Assembly: GCA_035533875.1 (NCBI GenBank)
Contig: DATLSZ010000033.1
Coordinates: 1-58,519 of the forward strand
Reading direction: 5' to 3'
Length of the DNA stretch: 58,519 nt
From: Candidatus Acidiferrales bacterium
GTDB lineage: Bacteria > Patescibacteriota > Microgenomatia > Levybacterales > UBA12049
Below the pieces are notes generated by a model. That model did not search any database. It was not told the origin of the DNA and saw only the letters and a list, made by a program, of their open reading frames with translations. A program made the position numbers and the translations under genes. Below, piece after piece: positions 6,423 through 57,809 of this stretch (its first letter is position 1; the number at the start of each line of letters is the position of its first letter).

Positions 6423-6535
6423 CTAATCCTCCCCCGTAGGGATTGGGTGGAGCACCCATCTCGGAAGCTTCAAACTAACCGAAGGGTTGCTGGATGGGTC
6501 ATCGAACCAATTCTCTCGCCATCTCTCTTGATTAA
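6423..6535 (-). promoter_or_regulatory. SAM-I-like (S-box) riboswitch, copy 1
   Basis: ATCAAGAG...GAGAGAATTGGTTCGATGA...CAGCAACC...GGTGCT; P1 TTAATC/GATTAG; upstream of a Met-related gene. Confidence 0.85.
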
Positions 6536-6548
6536 TTACATTATATCA

Positions 6549-9666: not shown

Positions 9667-9782
9667 CTAATCCTCCCCCGTAGGGATTGGGTGGAGCACC
9701 CATCTCGGAAGTTTCAAACTAACCGAAGGGTTGCTGGATGGGTCATCGGAGCCAATTCTCCATTCGCCATCACTCTTGATTA
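9667..9782 (-). promoter_or_regulatory. SAM-I-like (S-box) riboswitch, copy 2
   Basis: Same conserved core as copy 1; 9667-9748 matches 6423-6504 at 81 of 82 nt. Confidence 0.87.
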
Positions 9783-28690: not shown

Positions 28691-28867
28691 ATGGCAAAAA
28701 AAGGAGAACATCGCATAACAATCGGACTCGTGTGCCAGGTTTGCAAAAACCGGAATTATGTTACACAAAAAAATAAAATGGAAACACCTGAGAAATTGGT
28801 ACTGAAGAAATTCTGCAAACACTGCCGCAAAGTAACTGATCACAAAGAAGTAGAGAAATTGAAATAG
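28691..28867 (+). CDS. rpmG: 50S ribosomal protein L33 (below the ORF-track cutoff)
   Basis: 58 aa MAKKGEHRITIGLVCQVCKNRNYVTQKNK...LVLKKFCKHCRKVTDHKE. Confidence 0.96.
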   Translation: MAKKGEHRITIGLVCQVCKNRNYVTQKNKMETPEKLVLKKFCKHCRKVTDHKEVEKLK

Positions 28868-28966: not shown

Positions 28967-29037
28967 AGGGGTATCGGTTAACGGTAAACCAGCGGTCTCC
29001 AAAACCGCGACTGGGGGTTCGATTCCCTCTACCCCTG
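28967..29037 (+). tRNA. trnW: tRNA-Trp(CCA)
   Basis: Acceptor AGGGGTA/TACCCCT; anticodon arm GCGGT-CTCCAAA-ACCGC; canonical TTCGA T-loop. Confidence 0.96.
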
Positions 29038-29058
29038 CTGCACAGACTCGAACCTTTT

Positions 29059-29916
29059 TTATTTTATAAAGTATTGGAGAATTTCAAGAAGTCCATTTTC
29101 ATCTACGGAACCCTTACTTACAAAATATTTTCCTTCACCTTTTGATTTTATATTTTCTTTTAATTCCTCCGTTCCATTTGAAAGGGTTGCACCGTAACCG
29201 CATAACTGGATAAAATTCCAATCACTCGTGCTGTCACCGATACCCAAAACATCATCGAAAGAAATTCCTAGACTTTTAACGATCGCTTCTGCTCCTTCTT
29301 TTTTCGAACTTTCGGGCGCTGTAATGATGCCAAATTGCAGCGGCAACGCGACCGGATGCACTCCCCAACTGATTGATGCTTTTGCGTTAAACTTCTCCAA
29401 AACATCTGAAATCCGCTTTTTATCCTCGTTATCAGCCCCAATTGGCATGATCTTCGTAATCTCGTAATCGCCACTTTCTTCAACAATATCGGTAAGCAAA
29501 ACCGGATCTCGCTGGAGAATGTGTGTATGCTTTATTGTTGTTTCTGATACACTATCTTTTTGAATAAAGTAATCTTCTACTGTGTAGAACTCCACATAAA
29601 CATCTGCCTCCCGCAATGTGTGTAAAATTTCTTTGACCAAGCCTTTATCAAGCACATGTTTCTCAACGATGATCTTATCGATCGGATCAATAATTACGGC
29701 TCCTGCATCTGCAATATGCGGGTTATGCAAATTCGGCTGATTTATTTCTTCTGCTATCGAATAGTGAGGCTTCGCAGTACAAAGACAGACGGCAATTCCT
29801 TTTTCTCTGACCTTTTTTAAGGCCACGACTACATCTGGATGTGGATGAGGAGAATTGTATCCGATCTTTTCACCTATAATAACGCCGTCGACATCAAGAA
29901 TTATTGCTTTTATCAT
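29059..29916 (-). CDS. Cof-type HAD-IIB hydrolase
   Basis: AIILDVDG, CTAK and GIGDSTSD motifs. Confidence 0.85.
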   Translation of the reverse strand: MIKAIILDVDGVIIGEKIGYNSPHPHPDVVVALKKVREKGIAVCLCTAKPHYSIAEEINQPNLHNPHIADAGAVIIDPIDKIIVEKHVLDKGLVKEILHTLREADVYVEFYTVEDYFIQKDSVSETTIKHTHILQRDPVLLTDIVEESGDYEITKIMPIGADNEDKKRISDVLEKFNAKASISWGVHPVALPLQFGIITAPESSKKEGAEAIVKSLGISFDDVLGIGDSTSDWNFIQLCGYGATLSNGTEELKENIKSKGEGKYFVSKGSVDENGLLEILQYFIK

Positions 29917-29951
29917 TACATGAGTATTTTATCAAAGATCAGGCAAAAGAT

Positions 29952-30030
29952 GGAATATAAAACTCACCATTTCGTGCGTAAAAAGTTCTAACGTTGTACC
30001 CAAGCCTCTGCAGATAACTTTTTTCTTCAA
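29952..30030 (+). repeat. att-like repeat R1
   Basis: GGAATATAAAACTCACCATTTCGTGCGTAAAAAGTTCTAACG...GCCTCTGCAGA; 61/70 nt identical to R2. Confidence 0.9.
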
Positions 30031-30072
30031 ACTAAAAAATACGCCAGCAAACACATATCAGTATAAGAAGAT

Positions 30073-30432
30073 TTATTTGAAAAACAGCATTTTAATTGCA
30101 ATCAGTAAAACCGAAAAGCCGAAAATTCTCTCCAGCCATAATGAAGATAAGTTAGTAGCAAACTTAGCACCCAACCATCCTCCGACCAGAAAACCAATAG
30201 CTAAAAACAAAGCTATCTTAATATCAACATACCCTTGCTTATAATAAGCTAATACGGCAAGTAAGCCCACAGGTGGTAAAAGAAGAGCTAGTGTAGTTCC
30301 CTGCGCAACTTTTTGAGTGAGACCGAAAAGATAAATTAGAGCCGGTACAATAATAATGCCTCCACCGATTCCTACTAACCCACTAGCTACACCTGCAAGT
30401 AATCCTAAAAGTAAAATGCCAACGATAACCAT
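30073..30432 (-). CDS. TauE/SafE (TSUP) half-size membrane protein
   Basis: GLVGIGGG..IVP and AQGTTL motifs; 119 aa. Confidence 0.85.
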   Translation of the reverse strand: MVIVGILLLGLLAGVASGLVGIGGGIIIVPALIYLFGLTQKVAQGTTLALLLPPVGLLAVLAYYKQGYVDIKIALFLAIGFLVGGWLGAKFATNLSSLWLERIFGFSVLLIAIKMLFFK

Positions 30433-30483
30433 AGTATGTATACTTTACCTGAAACAGAAGATACTGTATAATTATCGTCGGAT

Positions 30484-31305
30484 ATGTCCGATAAATTAGA
30501 TAAAATTCAGCATAGATTAGCAGAAAAACTTAGTGCTTTTGGACTAAGTGATGTTGAAGCAAAAATTTATCTTCATTTACTCAATAAAGAGCCGAAAACA
30601 ACAACTGAGATTGCAAAAGAGCTTGAGCTTCCGCGAACATCCGTCTATGATAATTCACAAAAATTGCTAACAAAAGGTCTTGTTACGAGTGTTAAAAAAT
30701 ATAAAAGTCAGAAGTTGCAAGCTTTGTCTATCGATATATTGCAGACAATTATCACAAAAGAAAAAGAGAATATTGAACGTTTGGAAGAGAACTTCATTCA
30801 GTTAAAAGAAAACATCCAGCTTTCTTTTAACCCTTCATACAATACAGAAATCAAGTATTATCATGGCAAGCAAGGACTTATGCAAATGATGTGGAATACC
30901 CTTTCAGCTAAAGATGAAATTGTCCGGTATCCTGAATACGGCAGAATTGAAGTTGTAGGGAAAAAATTTTTCTTATCATGGGCTCATGAAATAATTGAAA
31001 AAAAGATTATTGAGAAAGCACTTATTAACCCAAAACCTGAATCACTTCGTCATTTTTTAGAAACAGATCAACATGCTTTAAGAATGGTCTATCAATATAC
31101 CCGAACATTGCCCGAGGATACGTTATATGTCTCTGGAGACACAACGATTTATAATAATACCTTTGCAGTTAGTTATTGGAAACAAGGAGAAATAGTAGGT
31201 GTGGAGATAGAGAATCCCGAACTGGTAAAAACACAAAAATCTATTTTTGAAACATTATGGAAAATCTCAAAACCCGTCGATTATTCCAATTTTGGAACAA
31301 ATTGA
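30484..31305 (+). CDS. TrmB-like transcriptional regulator
   Basis: GLS..EAKIYL.LL, IAKEL.LPRTSVY...KLL.KGLV HTH; C-terminal PLD-like effector (IYNNTFA...). Confidence 0.85.
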   Translation: MSDKLDKIQHRLAEKLSAFGLSDVEAKIYLHLLNKEPKTTTEIAKELELPRTSVYDNSQKLLTKGLVTSVKKYKSQKLQALSIDILQTIITKEKENIERLEENFIQLKENIQLSFNPSYNTEIKYYHGKQGLMQMMWNTLSAKDEIVRYPEYGRIEVVGKKFFLSWAHEIIEKKIIEKALINPKPESLRHFLETDQHALRMVYQYTRTLPEDTLYVSGDTTIYNNTFAVSYWKQGEIVGVEIENPELVKTQKSIFETLWKISKPVDYSNFGTN

Positions 31306-31320
31306 GAAAATAAAAAATTT

Positions 31321-31400
31321 GGAATATAAAACTTACCATTTTGTGCGTAAAAGGTTCTAACGTCGTACACGAGCCCCTGCTGATGACTTTTTAGCTTCAA
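31321..31400 (+). repeat. att-like repeat R2
   Basis: GGAATATAAAACTTACCATTTTGTGCGTAAAAGGTTCTAACGTCGTACACGAGCCCCTGCTGATGACTTTTTAGCTTCAA. Confidence 0.9.
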
Positions 31401-31461
31401 TTTGTGCCTAAAAAATCCCCTATCCACAACTATACGTTAGCACCTCTGGTATAATTCTCTT

Positions 31462-32226
31462 ATGAAACTCATGTCCTACAATATCCTTGATGGCGGAGTT
31501 GATCGCCTCCCTCTCATTATTGATGCTATTAAAAAAGAAGCTCCTGATTATCTCACCATAAACGAAGCAAATACGTTTGCGCAAGATGATAATAAGATTT
31601 TGAAAGAATTGACTCAACAGATTGATCTTCCCTATTTCGATGTTGCTTTATCAGAGGAATATGATTACCATGTTGCCGCTTTTTCTAAATATCCTTTTAA
31701 GCATACCACCAAACCCCACCCGTTGACGAGAGCTTGCCTAATAACGCTCATTGATACAGACTTGGGAGAGCTTTCGGTCGCCAGTCTACATCTTACTCCT
31801 TATGCAGAAGATCTACGACACCCAGAAATAGACTTAATTATCAAAGCCCAAAAACAATATGAAAACCGAATTTTAATGGGAGATATGAATTCTCTTTCAC
31901 AAAGTGACAACTATGATTCGCAAATAATACAACAGTTTACTGTGGCTCAGCTTAAAAAATTTACAACCGACACACAAATACGTTTTGATGCGATAAATAA
32001 AATACTCTCAGTTGGTTATTATGACGTTGCAAAGGAACTGGAGAAAAATAAAGAAAATACTGTTCCTACACCTACTAGTAAAGATACTTCTCATTCTCAG
32101 ATGAGATTGGATTACATATTTATTTCTGACTCACTTCTTCCTCATCTGAAAGATTATTCAGTAGTAAAAAATAAAATAACTGATAAAGCATCAGATCACT
32201 ATCCAATCATCGCAGAATTGAAGTAA
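31462..32226 (+). CDS. Endonuclease/exonuclease/phosphatase (EEP) family protein
   Basis: MSYNI, INE, LHL, MGDMNS, RLDYIF and SDHYP motifs. Confidence 0.9.
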   Translation: MKLMSYNILDGGVDRLPLIIDAIKKEAPDYLTINEANTFAQDDNKILKELTQQIDLPYFDVALSEEYDYHVAAFSKYPFKHTTKPHPLTRACLITLIDTDLGELSVASLHLTPYAEDLRHPEIDLIIKAQKQYENRILMGDMNSLSQSDNYDSQIIQQFTVAQLKKFTTDTQIRFDAINKILSVGYYDVAKELEKNKENTVPTPTSKDTSHSQMRLDYIFISDSLLPHLKDYSVVKNKITDKASDHYPIIAELK

Positions 32227-32234
32227 TAGATCCC

Positions 32235-32277
32235 ATTCGCTACGACTTATCCCCTGCTGACAATTTTTAGCTTTGAA
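32235..32277 (+). repeat. att-like repeat R3
   Basis: TTCGCTACGACTTATCCCCTGCTGACAATTTTTAGCTTTGAA. Confidence 0.75.
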
Positions 32278-32344
32278 TACCCTACTCTACGTGATTCGTA
32301 TCATTGTAAAATTATTCTTATTGAATTACCATTGGTATACATTT

Positions 32345-32866
32345 ATGCAATATAAATTGCTCAGGCAGAGTCATCTAATACTCGTAGCACGCTTAATAGG
32401 GTTGGATATAATAATAACCATTCTTTATCTTTTTTTCAGAATTTCCATTACTGTCCTTCAGTTGTTACAGGTAAGTACTGCGGGTTTTTATGGAGTCAGC
32501 ATCATCGATATTGTTTATTTTATCATTATAACTGTTGCTGAATTAACTTTAGGCACCTGGATTGTGCTTTCATGGGCTAATGAAGAATGGGAAATTAAAG
32601 AAGGGGTAATCTTTCATCGAAGAGGAATTTTTCATATGAAAGAAGATGCTTACTCTCTCAAACAGATTGGTTCAACGACATTAAATCAAGGTTTATTAGG
32701 TAAATTATTTAATTATGGCACCATTAAGATCTTTAGCCCCCTTTTAAAACAAGATTATTATCTGATGAATATTCATAATCCAAGAGAGATTGCCAAAACA
32801 CTTGAAGATGAGGTTGCTGGTACAAACCAAAAACATGGAACAAATATTTTCTTTAAAAAAAGCTGA
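32345..32866 (+). CDS. Bacterial PH-domain membrane protein
   Basis: Two TM segments, then RRGIF...QGLLGKLFNYGTIKI...NIHNP. Confidence 0.75.
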   Translation: MQYKLLRQSHLILVARLIGLDIIITILYLFFRISITVLQLLQVSTAGFYGVSIIDIVYFIIITVAELTLGTWIVLSWANEEWEIKEGVIFHRRGIFHMKEDAYSLKQIGSTTLNQGLLGKLFNYGTIKIFSPLLKQDYYLMNIHNPREIAKTLEDEVAGTNQKHGTNIFFKKS

Positions 32867-32933
32867 TTATCAAAATATATTAACCCTCTACTGTGCATCA
32901 GAATTTCTGTTATAATTTATTTGGGAGGTCATC

Positions 32934-33323
32934 ATGAAATCTCAACACCTTATCACTTGGATTAGCTTAGCAGGAATAATAGGAGCACTCTTTGGTATCT
33001 TTTATGCATTCTTCGGACTTAATGGCCTACCGGTGTATCAAAAATTAGTACCTGCTACTGTCTATACATCTTGGAGCAACGGACTTTACGGAGCTGTTTT
33101 TATCGGTTTTAGTGTGTTGCTTTTCTTAATCGGCAGACATGCATTCAAGAATAAGGATAAATTTCTTATGAAAGCACTTCTTTATGGATTGGCATCTTGG
33201 TTGATTGTTGAAGCATCCTTTTCTTTCTATTATGGTATTTATTTCAATATAGGTGTCGACGTATTTCTCATGATTTTCATAGGCTTCCCACTCGTAGTTG
33301 GCATACGTTCAAAAAAAACCTAA
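32934..33323 (+). CDS. Hypothetical membrane protein
   Basis: 129-aa ORF with about 4 TM segments and a GGAGG SD. Confidence 0.75.
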   Translation: MKSQHLITWISLAGIIGALFGIFYAFFGLNGLPVYQKLVPATVYTSWSNGLYGAVFIGFSVLLFLIGRHAFKNKDKFLMKALLYGLASWLIVEASFSFYYGIYFNIGVDVFLMIFIGFPLVVGIRSKKT

Positions 33324-33390
33324 CTATAGTGGAACTTCTTGAAAGAAGAAATAGGTTCCTACAAAGTTGTCCTTCGATACTTCAGGACCC

Positions 33391-33428
33391 TCGACTTAGC
33401 CCCTGCAGATATTTTAACTGGATTCGAA
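33391..33428 (+). repeat. att-like repeat R4
   Basis: TCGACTTAGCCCCTGCAGATATTTTAAC; shares CGACTTA-CCCCTGC-GA with R3. Confidence 0.65.
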
Positions 33429-33481
33429 TTTTCTAGTAGAATAGGTGCTATGACGAAACGAGATCAAAATATATCTGAAGT

Positions 33482-34450
33482 CTACATTAAAGAAGTAAGG
33501 TGGTCCAGTACTTCCTGATAATCACACATTGCAAGACATATTCCTTGGTCGCCTGATCCGTAGTATACATAAAGGTTTTCTCCAAATACCACAGCTCCTT
33601 CCGGGAAAGCAACATGATTTACCACCCCGTGCCTTTCACGTTCTGTTTCAGGTCTGAGAACATGGTCAACATTTGCCAGGATCTTTCGTGGGTCATGCAG
33701 ATCAAGAAGCGCTGCGCTGATTGACCACTCTGTATGGTCATTGACCGTACTGAGCGCGCTATAAATAAAAAGCCATCCATGAGGCGTCTTGATAGGCACC
33801 GCTCCTACTTCATTTCCCCTGCCATCACTTGGCCGGAATACTACTTGATCCTCATATTCTTCATTCACGATCCGGTTCATTTTTTCTTGTGAGGGATAAA
33901 ACAAGTCATAAAGATCATCAAATTGAGCCATCATAATGGTCGCTTTTGGACTTTCCAGCTCAAAGGTAAAGAGCATTGTGTATTTCCCATTAATCTTTTC
34001 AGGAAAAAGGCATGCTGCTTTTGAAAAAAGATCCGGTCCTACTATTCCGTGTTTGTTCCAGTGAATAAAATCCTTACTGGTGGCCAAAGCAATTCTCACC
34101 TTTTGTTCATGTCCCGAGCCTCCCACAGCTGTATAATAGCAGTAATATACTCCATCAATTTTGGTTATCCGGGGATCTTCACATCCCATACCGTTCTCAT
34201 AACTTTCTGTAGGGGCAATAAGGGGTTCTTCAAATCTTTCAAAATGCATACCATCAACACTTTCCGCATATCCGAGAGACGATATATATGCGCCTTCCTG
34301 GTCAGGATGGACGTCATTGGTTGCTCGATACATCATTCGAAAAAATCCATTTTCATAAATTACCCCAGGATTCAGAACAGATCCTCTTTCCCAATCATGG
34401 TTGGGATTCAATTCAAGAATTGGATCCCCCCGAAAACGTTTTAGTTTCAT
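33482..34450 (-). CDS. GH130-like glycosidase/phosphorylase (5-bladed beta-propeller)
   Basis: NPIL, LNPGV, M.YRA, GCEDPRIT, K.A.LFPEKINGKY, FPEGAV and YVYYG motifs. Confidence 0.85.
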   Translation of the reverse strand: MKLKRFRGDPILELNPNHDWERGSVLNPGVIYENGFFRMMYRATNDVHPDQEGAYISSLGYAESVDGMHFERFEEPLIAPTESYENGMGCEDPRITKIDGVYYCYYTAVGGSGHEQKVRIALATSKDFIHWNKHGIVGPDLFSKAACLFPEKINGKYTMLFTFELESPKATIMMAQFDDLYDLFYPSQEKMNRIVNEEYEDQVVFRPSDGRGNEVGAVPIKTPHGWLFIYSALSTVNDHTEWSISAALLDLHDPRKILANVDHVLRPETERERHGVVNHVAFPEGAVVFGENLYVYYGSGDQGICLAMCDYQEVLDHLTSLM

Positions 34451-34586
34451 ATAATTATTGTAACACTATCACTAATTTAATTGTCAAGTAAATAAAGTAC
34501 CACTTGATTCCTTATTCCTCTGAGAAAGAATATATATAGTGATCTTAATCACACTTTTTCTTATGATAAAATTGTATCATGAACAT

Positions 34587-35108
34587 ATGAAGAAAAGTCG
34601 TTTTTTTATTATTATTTTCACAATACTTCTTATTGGTGCAGCCAGCATTGCATTTATCCTCTATAACAGGGTGCAAGCTCAACAAAAAATCCATTATCAT
34701 GCTGGTTTTGTGGTGTTTAAGAACAATACAAAGCTTAGTTTTTCCGATAAGAAATACATGTATACGAAACCTTGCACGCTTAATGGAAAAGAAGATACGA
34801 CAAATGAAAATGACCAACTGGAAAAAGCACATTTGCACGATAATGTCGGGGATGTCGTCCATATTGAAAGAAGTGGTGCAGTTTGGCAAGATTTATTCAC
34901 AAACATTAAATTCCCTCTTGATTACAGCAAAACTGAAGGATTTATCAACGGACAAAAAGTAACAAACTATCAAACACAACCGATCAAACCAGATGATAGT
35001 CTTGTTGTTTTTATGGGAAATAATGATATTACAAAAGACTTAAAACAAGCTCCTACAAAAGATTACATGGAGCGAATGGCAAAGAAAAGTGGTACTTGTA
35101 GTGACTGA
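34587..35108 (+). CDS. Membrane-anchored hypothetical protein with His motifs
   Basis: N-terminal TM; HYH, HLHD and VVH motifs; start 34587 is 6 nt after TATCAT. Confidence 0.7.
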   Translation: MKKSRFFIIIFTILLIGAASIAFILYNRVQAQQKIHYHAGFVVFKNNTKLSFSDKKYMYTKPCTLNGKEDTTNENDQLEKAHLHDNVGDVVHIERSGAVWQDLFTNIKFPLDYSKTEGFINGQKVTNYQTQPIKPDDSLVVFMGNNDITKDLKQAPTKDYMERMAKKSGTCSD

Positions 35109-35121
35109 TTACCTATAAATT

Positions 35122-35199
35122 GGAATATAAAATCAGCATTTTGTGCGTAATAAGTTCTAACGTCATACACGAGCCCCTTCATTAAAACTTAGTTTCAAA
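35122..35199 (+). repeat. att-like repeat R5
   Basis: GGAATATAAAATCAGCATTTTGTGCGTAATAAGTTCTAACGTCATACACGAGCCCCTTC, clearly homologous to R1 and R2. Confidence 0.88.
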
Positions 35200-35254
35200 T
35201 AACTATATCAAACTATACTACCCTGAGCCGATTCGAACTTTAACCTCAGAAATC

Positions 35255-35284
35255 TTGACAATAGCACTTCCCTCGTGAGATAAT
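35255..35284 (+). promoter_or_regulatory. Sigma70 promoter
   Basis: TTGACA-N18-GATAAT just upstream of the riboswitch. Confidence 0.6.
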
Positions 35285-35292
35285 TTACCTAC

Positions 35293-35340
35293 AAGCGATG
35301 AAGTTCGCTTCTAAATGCCTCAAAAGCTAATGACTTCTAC
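35293..35340 (+). promoter_or_regulatory. Fluoride (crcB) riboswitch
   Basis: AAGCGATGAAGTTCGCTT-CTAAATGC...GCTAATGACTTCTAC matches the crcB motif GATG..GTTC.CC...GCT.ATGAC..CTAC. Confidence 0.82.
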
Positions 35341-35362
35341 CATACGTGGTAGGAGTTTTTTT
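35333..35362 (+). terminator. Riboswitch terminator overlapping the aptamer 3' end
   Basis: ACTTCTACCA-TACG-TGGTAGGAGT followed by a T-tract. Confidence 0.78.
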
Positions 35363-35384
35363 ATTTTTAACTCCCATCTATTTT

Positions 35385-36536
35385 ATGTCAATTTTCTTAG
35401 TTGCGACTATTTTTTTTGGTTTAGTTTTCTTTGCCAGTCTCATCTCAATTGAGTACGGAATTGCGGCGGCAATATCGGAAATTTTCTTTGGTGTTATTGC
35501 TGGGAATTTTCTTCATGTACCAACACATCTTGCTGTTCTTTCATTCCTTGCCTCTTTTGGCAGTATTTATCTTACCTTTCAAGCTGGAACAGAAGTTGAT
35601 GTTAAGCTATTCAAAAAGCATTGGATGGAGGCGTTTCTCATTGGTGGAGGTTCTTTTGTTGTTCCTTTTATCGCAGAATTTTTAGCTGCTTACTATTGGC
35701 TTCACTGGACGTTCGGTGCATCGGAGATCGCTGCTCTTGCTCTTTCAACAACATCACTTGCGGTAGTATACTCGGTTCTTGTCGAAACTGGACTGTCATC
35801 AACCAATTTTGGTAAGAGATTAATGGCTGCAACCTTTGTAGAAGATGCTTTAACGGCTGTATTCTTAACGCTTCTTTTCCTTCATGTGAATTGGTATACG
35901 TTTTTCTTCATCATTGCATCAATCGTTATTTTGATCGGGTTGCCAAAATTATATCCGATGATTGTGAAGAAATTTGGTAACAAAGTGGTTGAGCCAGAGT
36001 TGAAATTTTTATTCTTTTGTCTTTTTATTCTGTTGTGGCTTGGAAGTGCAGGTAATAATCAGCCGGGACTTCCAGTATTTTTCTTGGGTCTTTTGCTTTC
36101 GCCTTTCCTAACAAAAAATGAAGCATTACGAAAAAAGATGAGAACCATTGCCTTTGCAATGATAACACCCTTCTTTTTCTTTCAAGGTGGACTGAATGTT
36201 GATTTACGTTTTGTCTTAGCAGGCTTAGGAGTTTTTATCGCACTTCTTCTTATAAAGCTTATAACGAAATTTATCGGTGTCTGGCCATTTGCCAAAAAGT
36301 ATCATGGAGCAAATAGCATGTTTACCACACTGCTTATGAGTACCGGGCTTACCTTTGGAACGATTTCTTCATTGTATGGATTAAATAATCATATTATTTC
36401 TGTCCAACAATTCTCCCTTTTGATTACTGCCGTTATTATATCTGCTATTCTTCCTACTATTGTTGCTTTGAAATTCTATCCACCGAAAACAGAAAAATTA
36501 AAAGATATTATTACAACTGAAGGCGCAGAGGGATAA
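35385..36536 (+). CDS. Cation:proton antiporter (CPA2-like)
   Basis: About 12 TM segments; LTFQAGTEVD, STTS.AVV, AATFVED and FFF..GL.VD motifs. Confidence 0.85.
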   Translation: MSIFLVATIFFGLVFFASLISIEYGIAAAISEIFFGVIAGNFLHVPTHLAVLSFLASFGSIYLTFQAGTEVDVKLFKKHWMEAFLIGGGSFVVPFIAEFLAAYYWLHWTFGASEIAALALSTTSLAVVYSVLVETGLSSTNFGKRLMAATFVEDALTAVFLTLLFLHVNWYTFFFIIASIVILIGLPKLYPMIVKKFGNKVVEPELKFLFFCLFILLWLGSAGNNQPGLPVFFLGLLLSPFLTKNEALRKKMRTIAFAMITPFFFFQGGLNVDLRFVLAGLGVFIALLLIKLITKFIGVWPFAKKYHGANSMFTTLLMSTGLTFGTISSLYGLNNHIISVQQFSLLITAVIISAILPTIVALKFYPPKTEKLKDIITTEGAEG

Positions 36537-36574
36537 TGATAACTAATTATAAATTATAAAAATACGTCCATCCA

Positions 36575-36610
36575 ATTCACTCTGCCCCTGCTGATCACTT
36601 TTATATTCAA
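36575..36610 (+). repeat. att-like repeat R6
   Basis: TTCACTCTGCCCCTGCTGATCACTTTTATATTCAA. Confidence 0.7.
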
Positions 36611-36676
36611 ATTCTCTTTTTCTTAACCTCGACGGCGGAAGGACTCTAACCTTATATCTGATGCTATAATGATAAA

Positions 36677-37237
36677 GTGCAAGCACTGTTGGGTTTTTCA
36701 GCTTTAGTTTTAAACGTAATAGGATATATTCCCTATATTCGCGATATCTTTCGAAAAAAAGTAAAACCTCATCCATATACCTGGGTTATTTGGACAATTC
36801 TTACAACTATTTTAGCATTTAACCAAATAATAAATGGAGGAGGTTATTCTTCACTTTTCTTTATTAGTACAGCTATTCTGGTAGGATTTGTTTTTATCCT
36901 CTCACTCCATTTTGGCATGGGAGATACTTCAAAAATTGATCGCATTTGCCTTATCTTAGCCTCCATTCTTTTATTTTATTGGTTAACTACTCATGATACA
37001 CGGATTAGCACGATTTATGCAGTCATCATTGATGGAATTGGAGCTGTACCTACTCTGATAAAAACATATAATCATCCAACGAGTGAAACATATATTCAAT
37101 GGGTATTATCATCACTTGCCGGTTTATTAACCTTGCTCTCGGTGCCTATGTCTGATTGGATACTGTTAATCTATCCTTTCTATGTCTTTTTAATGGATGG
37201 TGCTATTGTAAGTATCAAATATTTCCGAGAACGATGA
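36677..37237 (+). CDS. Hypothetical membrane protein, PQ-loop-like internal duplication
   Basis: IPYIRDI..K..KP..YTW and VPTLIKTY..P..E..IQW repeats; GTG start 6 nt after TGCTATAAT. Confidence 0.7.
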   Translation: MQALLGFSALVLNVIGYIPYIRDIFRKKVKPHPYTWVIWTILTTILAFNQIINGGGYSSLFFISTAILVGFVFILSLHFGMGDTSKIDRICLILASILLFYWLTTHDTRISTIYAVIIDGIGAVPTLIKTYNHPTSETYIQWVLSSLAGLLTLLSVPMSDWILLIYPFYVFLMDGAIVSIKYFRER

Positions 37238-37267
37238 AACTAACTTTTAAATGTATTTCAAAAAAAA

Positions 37268-37330
37268 CGTTCTGACAACGTTGTTCATCTCCTGCTGCAT
37301 TTTTTAGCCTCAATTTATGCCCTAAAACCC
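37268..37330 (+). repeat. att-like repeat R7
   Basis: CTCCTGCTGCATTTTTTAGCCTCAATTTATGCCCTAAAA, homologous to the right flank of R2. Confidence 0.75.
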
Positions 37331-37372
37331 TCGCCCGCAATAGTACGTCCGCACTTCTGATATAATTACGTT

Positions 37373-37744
37373 ATGGGAAGTTTTGTTGAACTTAACGATA
37401 CTCTTCAAATAACAAAAGAACAGGGATTCCCCCCTGAACTCGATTTAGAGAAACATGTACAGACTCCTTTTACTGCAGAAGATTTCAAAGATACCATTTT
37501 TGAATTTCATGACAAACCCGGAGTGAGGATATATCATTTGCCTCCTGTACGAAATTTCTTTGCAGAAAATAGAGATGGAAAGTGGATTTATTGGGGTCTT
37601 GTCCATATCGTGGAGACGACGTGTGATTATATTGCAAAGACAACTTCAGGGAAATTTAAAATAATCTATATCAATACACCAGATGAAATGAAAAAAGCTC
37701 ACGAGCTTATCGATAGAAGATCTGAAACACAATACTTCAAATAA
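37373..37744 (+). CDS. Hypothetical protein (123 aa)
   Basis: Clean ORF, ATG 6 nt after TGATATAAT. Confidence 0.75.
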   Translation: MGSFVELNDTLQITKEQGFPPELDLEKHVQTPFTAEDFKDTIFEFHDKPGVRIYHLPPVRNFFAENRDGKWIYWGLVHIVETTCDYIAKTTSGKFKIIYINTPDEMKKAHELIDRRSETQYFK

Positions 37745-37781
37745 AATTCTTTTCGGTAAATTCTCCTGATATAATAAATAC

Positions 37782-38363
37782 GTGTTCAAAAATCGTATCG
37801 AATCATTTGCCAAATACGCTGGCGTAGCAACAGTCTGTGTCGAATGGCTGGCCTTACTTCTCTACTACCTCCAAATGCCGGCATACTTTGGTGGGCAATA
37901 TCCCATCAGTTATTTTGCTTCATTGCCACAGACTCGACTTGTGTTCAACATCTGCTACACGCTCGCAGGGATCTTTTTCTGGATCTTTATCAGACACCAT
38001 CTTCATAAGTTCTATCCGGCACCTATTAAAATTATCGGTTTGTCTATGATCCTATTTATTGGATTGGCATTGGTACCGTTCAATCCGAACAATCCTACCA
38101 GCGATCACATTCATAGTACTTTGGGATTGACATCGGCTATTCTGCTCACCGTTGGTTTATACGTTATGGCAAAAAAATCCCATAACCGCTCGGTTTATCG
38201 TACAACGATTTTTGCACTCATTGTGAGCTTATTACTTTTTATTGCGTTTGTCGTATCACCCAAAAACAGCCATCTGATTTTCACTTTTGAGGCAAGTTCT
38301 TGGCTTGTTATACAAGCATGGGTACTCTGGATATCATTTTACAGTTATAAAAATGCTCGTTAA
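37782..38363 (+). CDS. Hypothetical membrane protein (DUF998-like)
   Basis: About 5 TM segments; PISYFA...T..VFN and H motif; GTG 6 nt after TGATATAAT. Confidence 0.65.
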   Translation: MFKNRIESFAKYAGVATVCVEWLALLLYYLQMPAYFGGQYPISYFASLPQTRLVFNICYTLAGIFFWIFIRHHLHKFYPAPIKIIGLSMILFIGLALVPFNPNNPTSDHIHSTLGLTSAILLTVGLYVMAKKSHNRSVYRTTIFALIVSLLLFIAFVVSPKNSHLIFTFEASSWLVIQAWVLWISFYSYKNAR

Positions 38364-38401
38364 AAAAGGTTCCAGCACCTGTCCTGAGCATGCTGAAGGA
38401 A

Positions 38402-38420
38402 CGCAGCTTATCCCCTTCTT
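38402..38420 (+). repeat. Possible weak att-like repeat R8
   Basis: CGCAGCTTATCCCCTTC resembles R3 (CGACTTATCCCCTGC) and R5 (GCCCCTTC). Confidence 0.35.
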
Positions 38421-38453: not shown

Positions 38454-39119
38454 GTGGATATCGTGCCCGTAGAAGCATCTGTTTGGTCAAGACTCAGGCA
38501 TCATGAAAAATGGGCGGCTTTCATGGTCAGTCTTGAAGGAATCCTTACGGTTCTTCTTCTTGCAAATATTGTCTATTTGAATCTCTATATCTTTGATAAT
38601 GGGCTATTTGCAAAATCAGCTGATAATAAAAGTATACAATCCCCTGTTGGGGCTTCTCCTTCACCCACAGCGCTTCCTACAACCTGTCCAAGCTGCGTAA
38701 CGGCAAGTATCACGCCAAAAAGCACAGCACAGACCGCAACTGTTATACAGGATTCTGTAAAAGATTTTTACGTTTCACTCGGATCAGGGACAAATCAGAC
38801 AAGTGACTGGACTGATGTACCGGGAGTGCAGGCTGTTATCGATTTTGGTCAGTATCCGCGTATCAAAGAAATCCATTTTGAAGTATCTCTTTATGTGCCA
38901 AGTGCAAACGAATGGGTATCTGTCAGACTTTACAACGTAACAGACAAACATCCGGTATGGTATTCGGAAATGACGATGAACGCAAACACCACTGCGTATC
39001 TGACTTCACCGGCACTCAGTTATGATACCGGCTCCAAGTTATATCAAGTCCAGATGAAGACCCAGCTGCAGGCTCCCGCGACGCTCGTTCAAGCAAGAAT
39101 CCATATAGCACTGCAATAA
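38454..39119 (+). CDS. Membrane-anchored hypothetical protein with P/S/T linker and beta-rich C-terminal domain
   Basis: TM, SPSPTALPTTCPSC linker, soluble C-terminal domain. Confidence 0.7.
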   Translation: MDIVPVEASVWSRLRHHEKWAAFMVSLEGILTVLLLANIVYLNLYIFDNGLFAKSADNKSIQSPVGASPSPTALPTTCPSCVTASITPKSTAQTATVIQDSVKDFYVSLGSGTNQTSDWTDVPGVQAVIDFGQYPRIKEIHFEVSLYVPSANEWVSVRLYNVTDKHPVWYSEMTMNANTTAYLTSPALSYDTGSKLYQVQMKTQLQAPATLVQARIHIALQ

Positions 39120-39169
39120 AATCATTTAAAATATTGCAATACTATGAGTTCTTTGTTAGAATACACGCT

Positions 39170-41614
39170 ATGTCGACCCCATTTAGAGAAATTCCAAGTA
39201 GAGGTGGTTTGGGTAATGAGGCTGGGAATAGTCGCCTTCCAATAGGAGGACCCATTGAGCCTAGACTCTCAACCTCAGTCCATGTCCGTAGGCCTGCTCA
39301 GGATCTAGGAGGAGTTTCGTTCCCTACCTTAACGGGGATTGTCCGAAGAGGTCTCACTGGTATCGCAACACCGATTACAGACGGACAGGCTGCCATTACT
39401 GCTGCACGCAGGGTAGCTGCCCTTCCCGGTGCAAATCAACATGGACATGATGAGAGAGGCCGCTCTTCTCTTGCACAAGTAAGAACTGCAAACAGTGGTG
39501 TTGCTGATAGCGACGGGAGAGATCTCCCTTCGGCAACACACGCTCTGGTTAATGAAGCTCATACTATGTTAGGCCCGTATACCGAGCTCCCAAGAACGCA
39601 TGGACTAACTGAAGACGATAGATATTCCACAGATCCTGAACGGTCAAGACTTTATTTACTCCATAACACTGCAAAGCTTCTGCAACATGTTGTGGATCGT
39701 GCTCAGCAGTTCCGCTCACAATTGCCAGAAAATATCAGAGCTGTTTTGAGAACAGGTAGATTAGCTTCTGGGACAATCGTAGAAACATATTTTGGAATGA
39801 TAACAAGTGATATCCCACCTCATCAGGAGCAACTCGGGGATGCGATATCGGAAGTGAGCGATATCATGACGACAAAAGGATTTCAAGATCCACAGTTTGT
39901 ACTTACCCCACGCGAACATGAACAAATCCACAGCAGCGGATTTGCCGGTATTTATGCAGAGACAGACCCTGATGTACCGGTCCCTGTCCTCCGCGCTCAG
40001 TTAATAAGAGATGGACTGATTGAACCTGACCGTGGGGCGACTCTTACCTTGGAAGAGGCTGACCGTGCCCGCAGGCTTTTGGGAAAGACCCGGCTTGACT
40101 TAAATACAGGGAGAGTTACTGACGAAAGAGACGAGGCAGCAGCCAGAGACTCCTATCATTTTCTCTCAGCGGAAGAGGAAAATATTGTGAGAGATCGAGA
40201 ACAGCGTGTCCTTGCGGAGATTGATGCTATTGCCGCATCATCTGTCTCGGAACTTCCACAAGCAGCCCTTTTTGTATCTGCGCTTGATCAATATAGCAGA
40301 GGGGAATTATCGCTGGAAGCATTACAGGAAACTCGTCAAAGTATGATTAATTTGATAGGACAAAGAAGTAACATTGATTGGAACACATATATTCAAGAAA
40401 TGCGAACGATAGCTTTCCAATCCGGTGCCTGGGACCGCATACTTTCACCGCAAGAAATCCTGTTAAGAGACAACGTTACTCCTGACGATTTGGATCCGCG
40501 GTATCGAGAACATCCATATACGCCTCTTGCTATTCAAGACGGAGAGCCAATCGAAGCTATTGCACGTCTCAGAGAAAGCGAAGGGTATATGGATGTATCA
40601 ACTGGAATTTTACAATATAGACCGCTATGGCGGTTTGGGCTAGCATCACTAAATCCTGAAGGATCTACTGAACACAGCCCGGCTATTCTGGACCAAAGAA
40701 GTAATGAACCTATTGGGGAAGATGTCAGAGAATATTTTGGTCCGAGAATTGATGTGCCATTTGCCCGACGAGGTGAATGGTATTTTAAGGAACATTGGGA
40801 ACGAGAGTTGCCTGGCCTGGATACGTCCTTGGAAAGATACCTGGAAAATCAAAGAGGAGAAAGTGGGCTTTTCGGAACAGCACTTGATCTCCAGACCCCC
40901 TACTCGGCACTTGTTGCAACACTTGGGAGAGAGGTGCTCCATGCACGAGAACCTGAGCCCAAAAGTGTTATCTGTATGGACGGCGGTGTTGAGTCACCTA
41001 CCGATATGGCAGTCCGCGTGGCAGGACCGGTGACGCTTTTTCAACGGACGCTTGCAATACTTACGCAGCGGATTGCCAACGGCGAATTAACTGTCAGTCA
41101 AGTCTGCAATCATAAAGGCTGCGGCGCATTGGGATTGGATTTGGAAGCGAGAGACATGGCACATGCAGATAAGGTCAGTATCGGAGAAAAACAAACAAAG
41201 AGATTTGCAAACAATTTGCCAGGTAACGTTCCTTATGGAGGAGCACTCGAACTTACGCGACGTCCTGAAGATCTTCATTCCGAACAAATCATTATTGTTG
41301 ACGGCAGAGCAAATGGACTCGATCCGTCCCGATTCCTGCCGCCTTCAGTACCGGCATTTGGCATCACTGACTTGGACCGGGATGCGACGAGAGAATATAC
41401 AGGTGTTGCGATAGCTATTGCATTCGGTGGACATGGACTTGGTGAGCAATTAACAAAAGACAATCCGCTGCATTTGGTGGGTATTGCCGAAAACGAAGCT
41501 GCAAGGGCGGATCTTGAAAGAAGACTTGAGACTATCAGAACAGCAAGCGGTGAAGAATTTAAAGACCGGATAAAGGTAACCGTTATTACAGATGCTGGTG
41601 GCCCCACCAACTAA
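39170..41614 (+). CDS. Large orphan protein (814 aa) with C-terminal beta/zeta-carbonic-anhydrase-like Cys/His motif
   Basis: CMDGG...HKGCGA; start 39170 is 7 nt after TGTTAGAAT. Confidence 0.7.
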   Translation: MSTPFREIPSRGGLGNEAGNSRLPIGGPIEPRLSTSVHVRRPAQDLGGVSFPTLTGIVRRGLTGIATPITDGQAAITAARRVAALPGANQHGHDERGRSSLAQVRTANSGVADSDGRDLPSATHALVNEAHTMLGPYTELPRTHGLTEDDRYSTDPERSRLYLLHNTAKLLQHVVDRAQQFRSQLPENIRAVLRTGRLASGTIVETYFGMITSDIPPHQEQLGDAISEVSDIMTTKGFQDPQFVLTPREHEQIHSSGFAGIYAETDPDVPVPVLRAQLIRDGLIEPDRGATLTLEEADRARRLLGKTRLDLNTGRVTDERDEAAARDSYHFLSAEEENIVRDREQRVLAEIDAIAASSVSELPQAALFVSALDQYSRGELSLEALQETRQSMINLIGQRSNIDWNTYIQEMRTIAFQSGAWDRILSPQEILLRDNVTPDDLDPRYREHPYTPLAIQDGEPIEAIARLRESEGYMDVSTGILQYRPLWRFGLASLNPEGSTEHSPAILDQRSNEPIGEDVREYFGPRIDVPFARRGEWYFKEHWERELPGLDTSLERYLENQRGESGLFGTALDLQTPYSALVATLGREVLHAREPEPKSVICMDGGVESPTDMAVRVAGPVTLFQRTLAILTQRIANGELTVSQVCNHKGCGALGLDLEARDMAHADKVSIGEKQTKRFANNLPGNVPYGGALELTRRPEDLHSEQIIIVDGRANGLDPSRFLPPSVPAFGITDLDRDATREYTGVAIAIAFGGHGLGEQLTKDNPLHLVGIAENEAARADLERRLETIRTASGEEFKDRIKVTVITDAGGPTN

Positions 41615-41752
41615 AACCCCCATCACTGCTGCAGTAAAAAACCAACGCCTCTAATATAATGACGGCATGAAGATAAAAGGATTTGCAGATACCGTTGCAT
41701 GGTAGAATCAGCATTCAGAGACCAATGCCAATCAGGGGAATATCATTACCAA

Positions 41753-43039
41753 CTACTTACCCAACCGCTTCAATAGTATCTTCTTTATAGAACCGTAATC
41801 ACTTGACGAGTTGACAACTCGCTTCTCTTTCTTCCGTAGAGTATTGAGTACTTCCCTATTATCAACAGCAAGTCCTGTCTCCTCTTTCATTTCTTTGGCA
41901 AACTTCACCGGTGAGGCTGTCGAAACAATAATTGTTTCTAACCCAGAAACGTGAAGTTTTTCTGCGGCACAATACGCAACAGCCGTATGAAAATCCATGA
42001 GATACGTTCCTTCTCCGTAAACTTTTTTAATAGTCTCTCTTGTTTCTGTATCGGTTACTTTCACAGCTGTAATCAACTTACAGAACTCATCATGGTTGTT
42101 TTGAAAGAGTTCCAAAATCCGCTCGAAATTACTTGGATTACCGATATCCATGGCTGTTGAAAGTGTCTGAACCGACTGTTTGCTTTGATATATTCCGGTC
42201 TTGTAATACTGCACGGCGACATCATTCTCATTTGTCGCAATGATAAGTGACGCAATCGGTATTCCCATTCTTTGTGCAAGAAGTGCAGCAGTCGCATTCC
42301 CCATATTCCCGGATGGTACTACAAAACGCAATGTTTTTTCCCTCGACTGTACATATGCCCAAACATAATAAATTACTTGCGGAAGGAGACGCCCGATATT
42401 GATTGAATTCGCGGTTGTCAGATGAAATTTCTCCAGATCAGGTTCACGGAATGCGTGTTTGACAAACGATTGGCAATCATCATATGCGCCGTCAATTGCG
42501 ATTGATAATACATTTTCATCAACCCGTGTCAGTTGATCTTCCTGGAGTTCACTTACTTTCCCGGTAGGATACAACACCACTACTCTCACCCGTGATATGC
42601 CTGAAAATGCCTGCGCGATCGCTCCCCCCGTATCACCTGAGGTTGAGACCAAAATCGTTATGTTTTTCTTTTCTTTCTCCAGATAGAATTCAAACAATCT
42701 CGCCAGCATTCGTGCCGGTATATCTTTGAATGCCATTGTCGGCCCATGGAACAGTTCAAGAATCGAATAATCGCCGACACGGACAAGAGGGATTGGAAAG
42801 GTAAAAGCCTCTTGAATAAGAGGCTTTAAATTATCATTAGATATATCATCGGAATCCATCCACTTCCGCATGACCATACAAGCAACATCTTCCAATGTTG
42901 CCGCAGTTGCTAATTCTTTTTGAGAAAACTGAGGTATCATTCGTGGCATATAGAGCCCGCCGTCTGGAGCAAGGCCTTGAAAGATAGCGGTTTTGAAATC
43001 AACCTCCGGCGTTTTTTTTCTGGTACTATAGAATTTCAT
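41753..43039 (-). CDS. thrC: Threonine synthase
   Basis: GLAPDGGLY.P, ELFHGPT.AFKD (PLP Lys), STSGDTG, ANSINIGRL and VPSGN.GN motifs. Confidence 0.95.
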   Translation of the reverse strand: MKFYSTRKKTPEVDFKTAIFQGLAPDGGLYMPRMIPQFSQKELATAATLEDVACMVMRKWMDSDDISNDNLKPLIQEAFTFPIPLVRVGDYSILELFHGPTMAFKDIPARMLARLFEFYLEKEKKNITILVSTSGDTGGAIAQAFSGISRVRVVVLYPTGKVSELQEDQLTRVDENVLSIAIDGAYDDCQSFVKHAFREPDLEKFHLTTANSINIGRLLPQVIYYVWAYVQSREKTLRFVVPSGNMGNATAALLAQRMGIPIASLIIATNENDVAVQYYKTGIYQSKQSVQTLSTAMDIGNPSNFERILELFQNNHDEFCKLITAVKVTDTETRETIKKVYGEGTYLMDFHTAVAYCAAEKLHVSGLETIIVSTASPVKFAKEMKEETGLAVDNREVLNTLRKKEKRVVNSSSDYGSIKKILLKRLGK

Positions 43040-43085
43040 AACCAAGGTATTTTATCAGATCAGCTATATATGATAAAGTGGAGAT

Positions 43086-45613: not shown

Positions 45614-45680
45614 GAGGAACAAATTTTTTCGCAGAATGGATGACGAAGTATGTATTCAAGAAAAAATTTCGTTCCGAGCG
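45614..45680. repeat. Paired palindromic element, copy A (upstream of guaB)
   Basis: GAGGAACAAATTTTTTCGCAG...TTCAAGAAAAAATTTCGTTCCGAGCG. Confidence 0.8.
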
Positions 45681-45729
45681 ATTTATGTGAAATGAGAGTT
45701 TTTTAACATAAACCTTATGCTGGAATATC

Positions 45730-57674: not shown

Positions 57675-57743
57675 GAGGAACAAATTTTTTTCGCAGGAAG
57701 AAAGGCCGGGTCCGGTTTCAAGAAAAAATTTTGTTCTGAACGC
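57675..57743. repeat. Paired palindromic element, copy B (upstream of guaA)
   Basis: GAGGAACAAATTTTTTTCGCAG...TTCAAGAAAAAATTTTGTTCTGAACG. Confidence 0.8.
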
Positions 57744-57809
57744 TTTCAAACCCCGAATTGTTACACAAACGTATTGACGAAATGCATTTTGCCTCTATAA
57801 TATAAGTAC

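Follow-up and report, generated by a model that had tools for sequence, protein, structure and literature searches.

Among the described systems, the ssrA islands of Dehalococcoides are the closest to the gene array analysed here, which lies behind the tRNA-Trp gene of a Microgenomates genome, and the composite SCC elements of staphylococci come next. In the ssrA islands the large serine recombinase (LSR) DsiB, which is CcrB-like, integrates at the 3' end/T-loop region of a tRNA-like gene; the islands are tandem and bounded by direct repeats of the gene 3' end, the LSR gene overlaps attL, and about half of the islands are without an integration module and were read as cis-mobilisable (PMC3146451). 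The present array is situated on contig C33 (DATLSZ010000033.1) of assembly GCA_035533875.1 (here G000, 1.28 Mb in 39 contigs), and the whole contig of 58,519 nucleotides was taken as the window. It appears to be a stack, 9.4 kb in length, of eight foreign DNA units with one or two genes each, lying between leftover docking sites of LSRs. It resembles the ssrA islands in that the gene of the recombinase extends through attL and on into its target, as seen in two relatives (G001 and G002) and on contig C4 of G000. It differs in the target, which is tRNA-Trp here and other tRNAs for relatives of one arm type (type A), and in the core of 7-9 bp against 20 bp. Moreover, the ssrA islands reach the size of phage genomes and have an integration module of six genes, whereas the units here measure 0.7-1.8 kb and reside in a host of the Candidate Phyla Radiation (CPR).

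In the staphylococcal cassette chromosome (SCC/SCCmec), Ccr LSRs are at work, and recombinase-bearing and recombinase-less elements are stacked at one site with short direct repeats between them. Elements without ccr depend on the recombinases of others. The SCC target is the 3' end of rlmH (orfX), the elements are tens of kb long and CcrAB pairs or CcrC are used, whereas the present locus involves a tRNA and small units. The accretion-mobilisation model of integrative and conjugative or mobilisable elements reportedly goes back to Pavlovic 2004 and Bellanger 2011. According to it, cis-mobilisable elements (CIMEs) without integration genes keep their att sites, integrate in tandem and move together as composites (PMC5704250). 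Unlike the present locus, the described cases mostly involve tyrosine integrases and conjugative transfer. Tycheposons of Prochlorococcus share with our locus the streamlined genome, the cargo at tRNA genes, the older elements pushed inward and the partial tRNA copies or remnants; 910/937 of tycheposons and related elements use tyrosine recombinases, and replication genes are often carried (bioRxiv 10.1101/2020.12.28.424599). The repeats there are partial tRNAs, whereas here they are LSR-type sites of a P arm plus a 7-bp core with 7-9 nt in common with the tRNA. Integrons are similar in the one-orientation stack, the small units, the fixed site, the recombination sites in between and the diverse accessory cargo. 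In contrast to them, the locus has no IntI, attI or attC hairpin, the serine recombinases act on double-stranded sites, and the units possess their own promoter-like sites and mixed gene orientation, with 3/12 array genes on the minus strand. The array is not an integron. The initial annotation of this DNA had described an integron-like platform; every defining integron feature tested failed, and the functional analogy of a cassette stack is still reasonable. Literature searches found no description of such a system in CPR. What sets the array apart from the ssrA and SCC islands is the tRNA target read via its T-loop, the 7-bp core, the integron-sized units and the CPR host.

The tRNA-Trp 3' end reads ...GGTTCGATTCCCTCTACCCCTG, followed by CTG. 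Repeats of its core were found in seven clear copies and one weak copy between 30005 and 38418, all in a single orientation and all intergenic (Table 1), in agreement with the initial annotation. Three or four of the eight cores are mutated. With at most one mismatch, the motif GCCCCTGCWGA matches the window 7 times (1.16 expected), and 0/100 shuffles reached 7. Its exact form occurs 4 times in the 1.28-Mb genome, 3/4 of them in the array. A 67-nt hidden Markov model (HMM) of the junctions was scanned on the whole G000 genome with a cut-off of E<0.01. It gave 7 matches, all on the plus strand and all within 29974-37321, while the next best match in the genome had E=0.77; near 38400, the eighth copy scored just E=5. 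Shuffles, exact-match count and HMM scan together reject chance and a motif scattered over the genome. A core-like site at C35:14955 was dismissed, as it lies in coding-looking sequence and has no HMM match. Single-stranded DNA folds of the seven junctions showed no stable fold compared with shuffles (z -0.65 to +1.15), and attC-like or terminator hairpins at the junctions were rejected on this ground; absence of attC hairpins had been proposed before.

The array also stands out by composition. Its GC content is 0.366 compared with 0.42 in the left flank and 0.444 in the right flank, ranges from 0.33 to 0.39 among the units and rises to 0.45 just past 38420, so that positions 29039-38420 form a compositional island. 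The content behind tRNA-Trp is different in each species of the genus. Homologues of thrC and of an 826-aa orphan downstream of the array were not found in the same-genus genomes, so that the right boundary is set by the GC shift together with the weak junction J8, which is probably the right end of the island. The sequence to its right, 38454-43045, encodes a 221-aa protein, the 826-aa orphan and thrC, none with homologues in five same-genus genomes; because of this the flexible region may reach past the last junction, although the GC content there, 0.45, is not low. The secE-nusG pair, of which secE had been noted earlier as absent from the window, is on contig C15 after glmS. It was rejected as the right flank for defining an empty site because it is on a different contig.

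The surroundings of tRNA-Trp were compared in six genomes of the genus, and cargo and arm patterns in 150-151 genomes of the family. The left arms of J1, J2 and J5 (29945-30023, 31314-31392 and 35114-35192), of ~55 nt, make up one repeat family, here called type A; three left arms of ~50 nt had been recognised earlier. The T-loop motif GTTCGA begins 22 nt ahead of the core end in all tRNA junctions examined, whereas GTTC[TCA]A begins 27 nt ahead of it in all listed type-A or type-B arms, from at least 8 genomes. An equal shift of +5 (23 vs 18 nt) was found in a tRNA-Ser-targeting relative of the type-A element. Rutherford et al. showed that the attB of serine integrases has the zinc-ribbon-domain motif 5 bp nearer to its centre than attP has (PMC3783163). 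As the shift matches this rule, the left arms are best taken as P-type half-sites and the tRNA, with its T-loop and acceptor end, as a B-type half-site. When the motif is set at attP positions 16-24 and attB positions 11-19 (PMC3783163), the centre would fall inside CCCCTGC. The tRNA and the arms have just CCCCTGC(T) in common, 7-9 nt of the tRNA being repeated, and their flanks are otherwise unrelated. The T-loop-like left arm of the initial annotation is therefore present, and is now read as the P half-site of an element attP.

The block TTTGTGCGTAAAAAGTTCTAACGTC of the type-A arm is almost invariant in 23 distinct copies from many Microgenomates, at all codon positions. Different tRNA-end cores follow it, namely CCCCTGC (Trp), CCGCA (Ser) and CTGGA (others). 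This invariance together with the varied cores fits a predicted protein-binding site. In antisense, the reading frame of the LSR runs on through the core in the type-A arm (..QG LVxDVRTFYAQNGxFYIP..), as seen at J1, J2 and J5 of the window and at L022:11580-11640. The LSR C-terminus would thus be completed only across attP, so that circular and integrated forms differ, and conservation at all codon positions suggests a constraint at the DNA level as well. The same possibility of completion at attP was raised by McMurdie et al. for DsiB, whose gene overlaps attL (PMC3146451). The conserved arm has no match in Rfam at the gathering score. A small-RNA reading of the arm copy at L034/L041 was dropped, since a tRNA-Ser core and an LSR stump lie alongside.

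Most right arms start with N4-7-TTTTAGCCTCRAA. This motif is found directly 3' of the tRNA in G012, G004 and L043, and in a diverged form in G006. Because the right arm of the P-core-B' layout resembles the sequence next to the tRNA in relatives, most junctions are probably of attR type. The TTTTAGCCTCAA right arm resembles the sequence 3' of the tRNA in several relatives, a B'-type half-site; a TTTT(T)AGC-type right flank had been noted in the initial annotation. In a few G008 junctions an inverted ACGTTAGAAC lies ~5 bp further out and is P'-half-like. The right arm of J2, of ~80 nt (TTTTTAGCTTCAAT...TATAAT), is common to J7 and to junctions of G004 and G008. The arm cacagactcgaacc behind the tRNA core recurs in G006, where it follows an internal junction, and at the HAD unit of G004, and the corresponding place in G016 holds a longer related arm, ...gccggaatcgaacc. 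Right arms of one class include, in inverted form, a piece resembling the tRNA 3' end (..GACGGCGGACGGAATCGAACC, reverse complement GGTTCGATTCCGTCCGCCGTC), at 36592-36660 of the window, L035:1587-1640 and, in reverse complement, L063 120-160 and 1108-1150. At L043 it is the T-arm of tRNA-Trp itself that is copied in inverted form. Such a piece may be a relic, or else a further docking site in the opposite orientation.

The left arm of J4 starts like type B (AATAGGTTCC..GTTGTCC) and continues with a 27-nt GTCCT...AGGAC hairpin segment, and this composite arm is present four times in the G008 array. In this long form generally, an insert of 27-31 nt follows AGGTTCC..GTTGTCC, with a short stem GTCCT/AGGAC (GTCCTC/GAGGA in G008) and a variable loop. 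The copies lie at 33349-33399 and 38362-38411 of the window and at 2830-2889, 3430-3489, 6510-6569 and 7391-7450 of G008 (L071 reverse complement). As at least three arm types exist (A, B, and long B with hairpin), several element lineages appear to have used the tRNA-Trp site.

Relatives provide the link to the recombinase. G001, of the same genus, has a 540-aa LSR which reads toward tRNA-Trp and has its stop codon within the acceptor stem. In G002, also of the same genus, a second LSR of 502 aa, 26% identical to that of G001, abuts tRNA-Trp and reads toward it. Both contain Resolvase, Recombinase and Zn_ribbon_recom domains. At its far end the G001 element, of 10.6 kb, reads ggaatataaaaatctccattttgtgcgtaaaaagttctaacgtcttctacgagCCCCTGC, which is the type-A arm of J1, J2 and J5 plus CCCCTGC at 88-93% identity (93% for J1). 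The G002 element ends in aataagttccaacatagttgctcagCCCCTGC, the type-B arm, which also occurs in G004, G006 and G008 and in decayed form at J6 and J7. The G001 attR is directly followed by a stump, 160 bp long, of an LSR gene of the G002 type, so that tandem insertion at the tRNA and subsequent decay are directly visible in a relative. On this sequence evidence, the enzyme family at the tRNA-Trp junctions is most plausibly the LSRs, abutting the tRNA in cis in relatives. A site-specific recombinase at the tRNA, as expected in the initial annotation, is retained, of the LSR family and not a tRNA-targeting tyrosine integrase. In G000, PF00589 was found just on C2 and PF00239 on C4 and C17, and contig C33 is without a recombinase gene, as already reported. 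The tRNA-Ser(gct) gene of G000 carries an element whose type-A LSR gene (C4:728 to at least 2434) looks intact and reads into the tRNA 3' end (C4 c[2431-2519]). This LSR is 62% identical to the G001 enzyme, and its attL is on C4 (C4:1-2630). At C29:1035 (C29:1015-1090) there is a P-arm copy, attR-like, with a tRNA-Ser-like core (TCCTCCGCC). The element is thus split across two contigs, with LSR and attL on C4 and the attR-like arm on C29.

The arm-plus-core pattern, with at most one mismatch, was detected in 30/151 family genomes, ~20 of them convincing. Mostly one or two copies are present; some form tandem pairs ~2 kb apart, and smaller tandems exist in other genera. In G008, of the same genus, tRNA-Trp is followed by eight exact-core junctions within 7 kb, with units of 0.6-1.5 kb and no protein in common with the window array. 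G004 has six to seven junctions, and with these arrays the site proves to be a hot spot in relatives, as had been supposed. The complete genome G012 has zero junctions and an attB-like site at the tRNA.

Units are shared and re-ordered between species. Homologues of the HAD protein, with 86% and 79% amino acid identity, are located in the G004 and G016 arrays, and both arrays also contain DUF998 homologues. The HAD unit is the first after the tRNA in G000, about the fourth in G004 and next to DUF998 in G016. In all three it terminates directly at a P arm, with different neighbours each time. Its left arm is related in G000 and G004 (..acagactcNaacc..attttataa) and longer in G016.

The cargo appears to be foreign in origin, judged by its low GC content and by the patchy distribution of several genes. 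The protein of the endonuclease/exonuclease/phosphatase family (EEP) occurs in 5/150 family genomes and in none of the same genus, and the cation/H+ antiporter (CPA) has a close homologue in 1/150 (59% identity). The GH130 copy shows 88-91% protein and 78-83% DNA identity to copies in five other genera and is absent in the same genus, where just 38%-identical paralogues exist in a three-gene cluster, which G000 possesses too, on C38. No junction-bounded context was found for the GH130, EEP and CPA homologues in other genera, except in G016, where GH130 lies near HAD and DUF998. The gene content between the copies is as listed in the initial annotation, including the fluoride riboswitch. Unit 6 looks self-contained: a promoter-like site at 35255-35284 (TTGACA-18-GATAAT, 11/12 consensus positions) is followed by the riboswitch, an overlapping terminator-like hairpin at 35332-35357 and the Na+/H+-exchanger-family gene. 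The TauE-family gene of Unit 2 encodes 119 aa, covers profile positions 129-237 and forms a divergent pair with the TrmB-type regulator.

Table 1. Features of the tRNA-Trp array. Positions are those of the window; J, junction; arm types as in the text.
Feature	Position	Strand	Description	Evidence
rpmG	28691..28867	+	ribosomal protein L33; conserved on the left of tRNA-Trp	PF00471 in identical public contigs; DNA match in relatives
tRNA-Trp(CCA)	28967..29038	+		ARAGORN; Rfam 60.2 bits; motif geometry
Core CCCCTGCTG at tRNA 3' end	29032..29040	+	putative crossover region; arm cacagactcgaacc comes next	
Unit 1	29041..29952	-	HAD-like hydrolase (gene 29059-29916); GC 0.39	Pfam PF08282, 5e-32
J1	29953..30011	+	type-A P arm, core CCTCTGC (30005-30011)	repeat family; HMM E=1e-9
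Unit 2	30012..31319		half-size TauE (30073-30432, -), TrmB-family regulator (30484-31305, +)	Pfam
J2	31320..31380	+	type-A P arm, core CCCCTGC (31374-31380)	repeat family; HMM
Unit 3	31381..32233	+	EEP-family protein (31462-32226)	Pfam PF03372
J3	32234..32257	+	short left arm ...cgacttat, core CCCCTGC (32251-32257)	HMM E=0.0065
Unit 4	32258..33348	+	bacterial PH-domain membrane protein (32273-32866), 129-aa membrane protein (32934-33323)	Pfam PF03703
J4	33349..33406	+	long left arm, core CCCCTGC (33400-33406)	HMM
Unit 5	33407..35120		GH130 phosphorylase (33482-34450, -), 189-aa hypothetical (34539-35108, +)	Pfam PF04041, 3e-41
J5	35121..35180	+	type-A P arm, decayed core CCCCTTC (35174-35180)	repeat family; HMM
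Unit 6	35181..36557	+	promoter, fluoride riboswitch (35285-35346), CPA (35346-36536)	Rfam RF01734 44.1 bits; Pfam PF00999
J6	36558..36591	+	type-B-like P arm (aaatacgtccatccaattcactctg), core CCCCTGC (36585-36591)	HMM E=6e-5; similar to G006, G004 junctions
Unit 7	36592..37259	+	186-aa membrane protein, PQ-like (36677-37237)	67%-identical homologue after a junction in G002 array
J7	37260..37295	+	degenerate P arm, core CTCCTGC (37289-37295), then long right arm	HMM E=4e-7
Unit 8	37296..38361	+	123-aa hypothetical (37373-37744), DUF998-like membrane protein (37782-38363)	weak Pfam PF06197
J8 (weak)	38362..38418	+	AGGTTCC..TGTCC arm, hairpin-like segment, CCCCTTC (38412-38418)	HMM E=5; arm form like J4

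The best explanation of these data, with a probability of roughly two in three (about 0.68), is tandem accretion and cis-mobilisation at a tRNA-Trp attB of LSRs, the recombinase modules having since been excised or lost. Recombinase-less units lie between att-type direct repeats at the site which the autonomous LSR elements of G001 and G002 use. The tRNA-Trp 3' end would be the chromosomal attB of LSR-driven integrative elements in this Microgenomates family. Each repeat would be an attR-type hybrid composed of a P half-site with the T-loop mimic GTTC(T/C)AAC, the 7-bp core and usually a B' right half, and strand exchange would take place inside the core. Repeated integration of LSR elements at this attB would build up a stack. 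With a directionality factor, attL could recombine with any downstream attR, and the element would leave together with the units stacked behind it and be delivered with them to the tRNA-Trp of another genome. Later excision via the proximal attR would restore B-core-B' at the tRNA and leave the units behind, with a B'-type arm at their start and a P arm at their end. Canonical LSR reactions alone would explain the attB-like tRNA junctions of G004, G006 and G012, the mixed arms, the loss of the recombinase and the kept order of units. The scheme is that of the CIMEs (PMC5704250), and it was also put forward for the ssrA islands without a recombinase (PMC3146451). Two earlier proposals agree with this explanation, namely that the repeats arose by site-specific recombination at the 3' end of tRNA-Trp and that they delimit small recombinase-less units of foreign DNA.

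Several observations weigh against accretion and cis-mobilisation. No LSR remnant was found in the window by tblastn (best E>0.4, nothing placed at a junction), and with neither an LSR gene nor a detectable stump there, the link to the LSRs rests on the relatives. The classification of the right halves as B'-type is soft, as the right-arm motif is degenerate and the dyad symmetry of the site partial. Many units start with a B'-type arm and not with the P' arm of the LSR side, which needs cis-mobilisation or P' arms resembling B'. The units are uniformly small and have intact genes in at least three species, which is poorly predicted by decay of ~10-kb elements. Further, one HAD cargo is associated with two P-arm types, A in G000 and G016 and B in G004. 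The small unit size and these mixed arms leave some room for true mobility of single cassettes, unlikely as it is.

Such mobility is central to an alternative in which an active integron-like system operates: independent circular cassettes of 0.7-1.8 kb, each with one P-core-right-arm site, are captured, excised and reshuffled singly by a resident or visiting LSR acting in trans. We consider it unlikely, with real points in its favour. Arrays with up to eight tiny units of intact genes are present in G000, G008 and G004 with entirely different cargo, and all eight G008 cores are exact. The HAD, DUF998 and PQ-like units reappear junction-bounded with different neighbours, the arrays contain attP-like (P-core-P') and attB-like sites in direct orientation which an LSR could use for deletion, and G000 itself encodes the intact type-A LSR at tRNA-Ser(gct). 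However, that resident LSR shares only 62% identity with the tRNA-Trp type and has a P arm of its own with 5 differing positions. The mutated cores of the window argue against activity. So does the attR type of most junctions, since neither attB nor a second attR is a partner for attR in the reactions of canonical LSRs (PMC3783163). The shared units have 71-81% DNA identity between species, giving no sign of recent movement, and the relative order of HAD and then DUF998 is preserved in G000, G004 and G016. In the public contigs (ENA, JGI, Logan) that encode the exact EEP protein (8 read) or HAD protein (9 read), gene order is identical. Seven that were aligned are colinear with the window at 99.8-100% identity, and among the EEP/HAD carriers examined no structural variant was found, no unit being missing or moved. 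The array in the species of the window appears to be fixed and now without a recombinase in cis. The earlier proposal that each unit was inserted singly by a trans-acting recombinase finds no support in these identical arrays, nor does the idea that the newest unit lies next to the tRNA, since core decay follows no clear gradient.

A broader form of this alternative, that Microgenomates possess a serine-recombinase counterpart of the integron in which cassettes of one or two genes are captured, stacked, excised and exchanged in trans at tRNA 3' ends, is doubtful to a slightly greater degree. Here the LSR family would read the tRNA T-loop (GGTTCGA) as the attB half-site and T-loop mimics as the attP half-site. 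The mixture of attB-, attR- and attP-like sites in direct orientation and the LSR frame completed across attP, with its conserved tail ..DVRTFYAQ, speak for it.

That the repeats are regulatory or RNA-processing modules, such as promoters, terminators or tRNA-like processing signals, spread by duplication, is very improbable. Right arms do finish in TATAAT boxes upstream of cargo genes, the type-A arm in antisense offers TTTACG-N17-TATATT ahead of the HAD gene, and the HAD-side arm block is 96% identical between G000 and G016 although the HAD gene itself is 76% identical. Yet promoter-like sites are not enriched (39 found vs 33.5 expected), the junctions have neither stable folds nor terminator-like hairpins, the junction motif is missing from the rest of the genome, and identical arm types bound LSR elements in relatives. 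A promoter role of the junctions may exist, secondary at most, and would leave the architecture unexplained. Least probable of all are tyrosine-integrase islets in tandem at the tRNA 3' end with displaced tRNA fragments as repeats, for although tRNA 3' ends are the usual targets of these enzymes and it is common for tandem islets to carry partial copies of the tRNA (Islander and tycheposon literature), no PF00589 gene was found near tRNA-Trp in the six genus genomes, where the matches are Xer-like genes elsewhere, the repeat covers just 7-9 nt of the tRNA, the left arms are conserved element arms with a motif shifted by +5 bp and not tRNA fragments, and LSR genes adjoin the site in relatives.

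Two other repeats of the window lie outside the array. Direct repeats of 82 nt, 99% identical and 3.2 kb apart (6423-6504 and 9667-9748), have no relation to the tRNA-Trp array, and a 64-nt repeat with 73% identity (45621-45684 and 57683-57746) is situated upstream of two genes.

CPR/Patescibacteria have tiny genomes and few described mobile elements, and their gain of accessory genes is poorly understood. The locus and its relatives offer a concrete route for such gain, in which LSRs would dock on the T-loop and acceptor end of a tRNA and stack tiny units of cargo. With the conserved 25-nt arm as a marker, such islands can readily be mapped across Microgenomates. The LSRs constitute a natural series with one half-site motif and varied centres (tRNA-Trp, tRNA-Ser and others), suitable as a test bed for re-programming of targets. 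If single units are mobile, this would be an integron-like system built on a different enzyme class. If the wider serine-recombinase counterpart of the integron is real, the attP-spanning LSR frame and the mixed sites would make a built-in switch between integrated and excised states, and accessory genes would enter and leave these reduced genomes mainly through this system.

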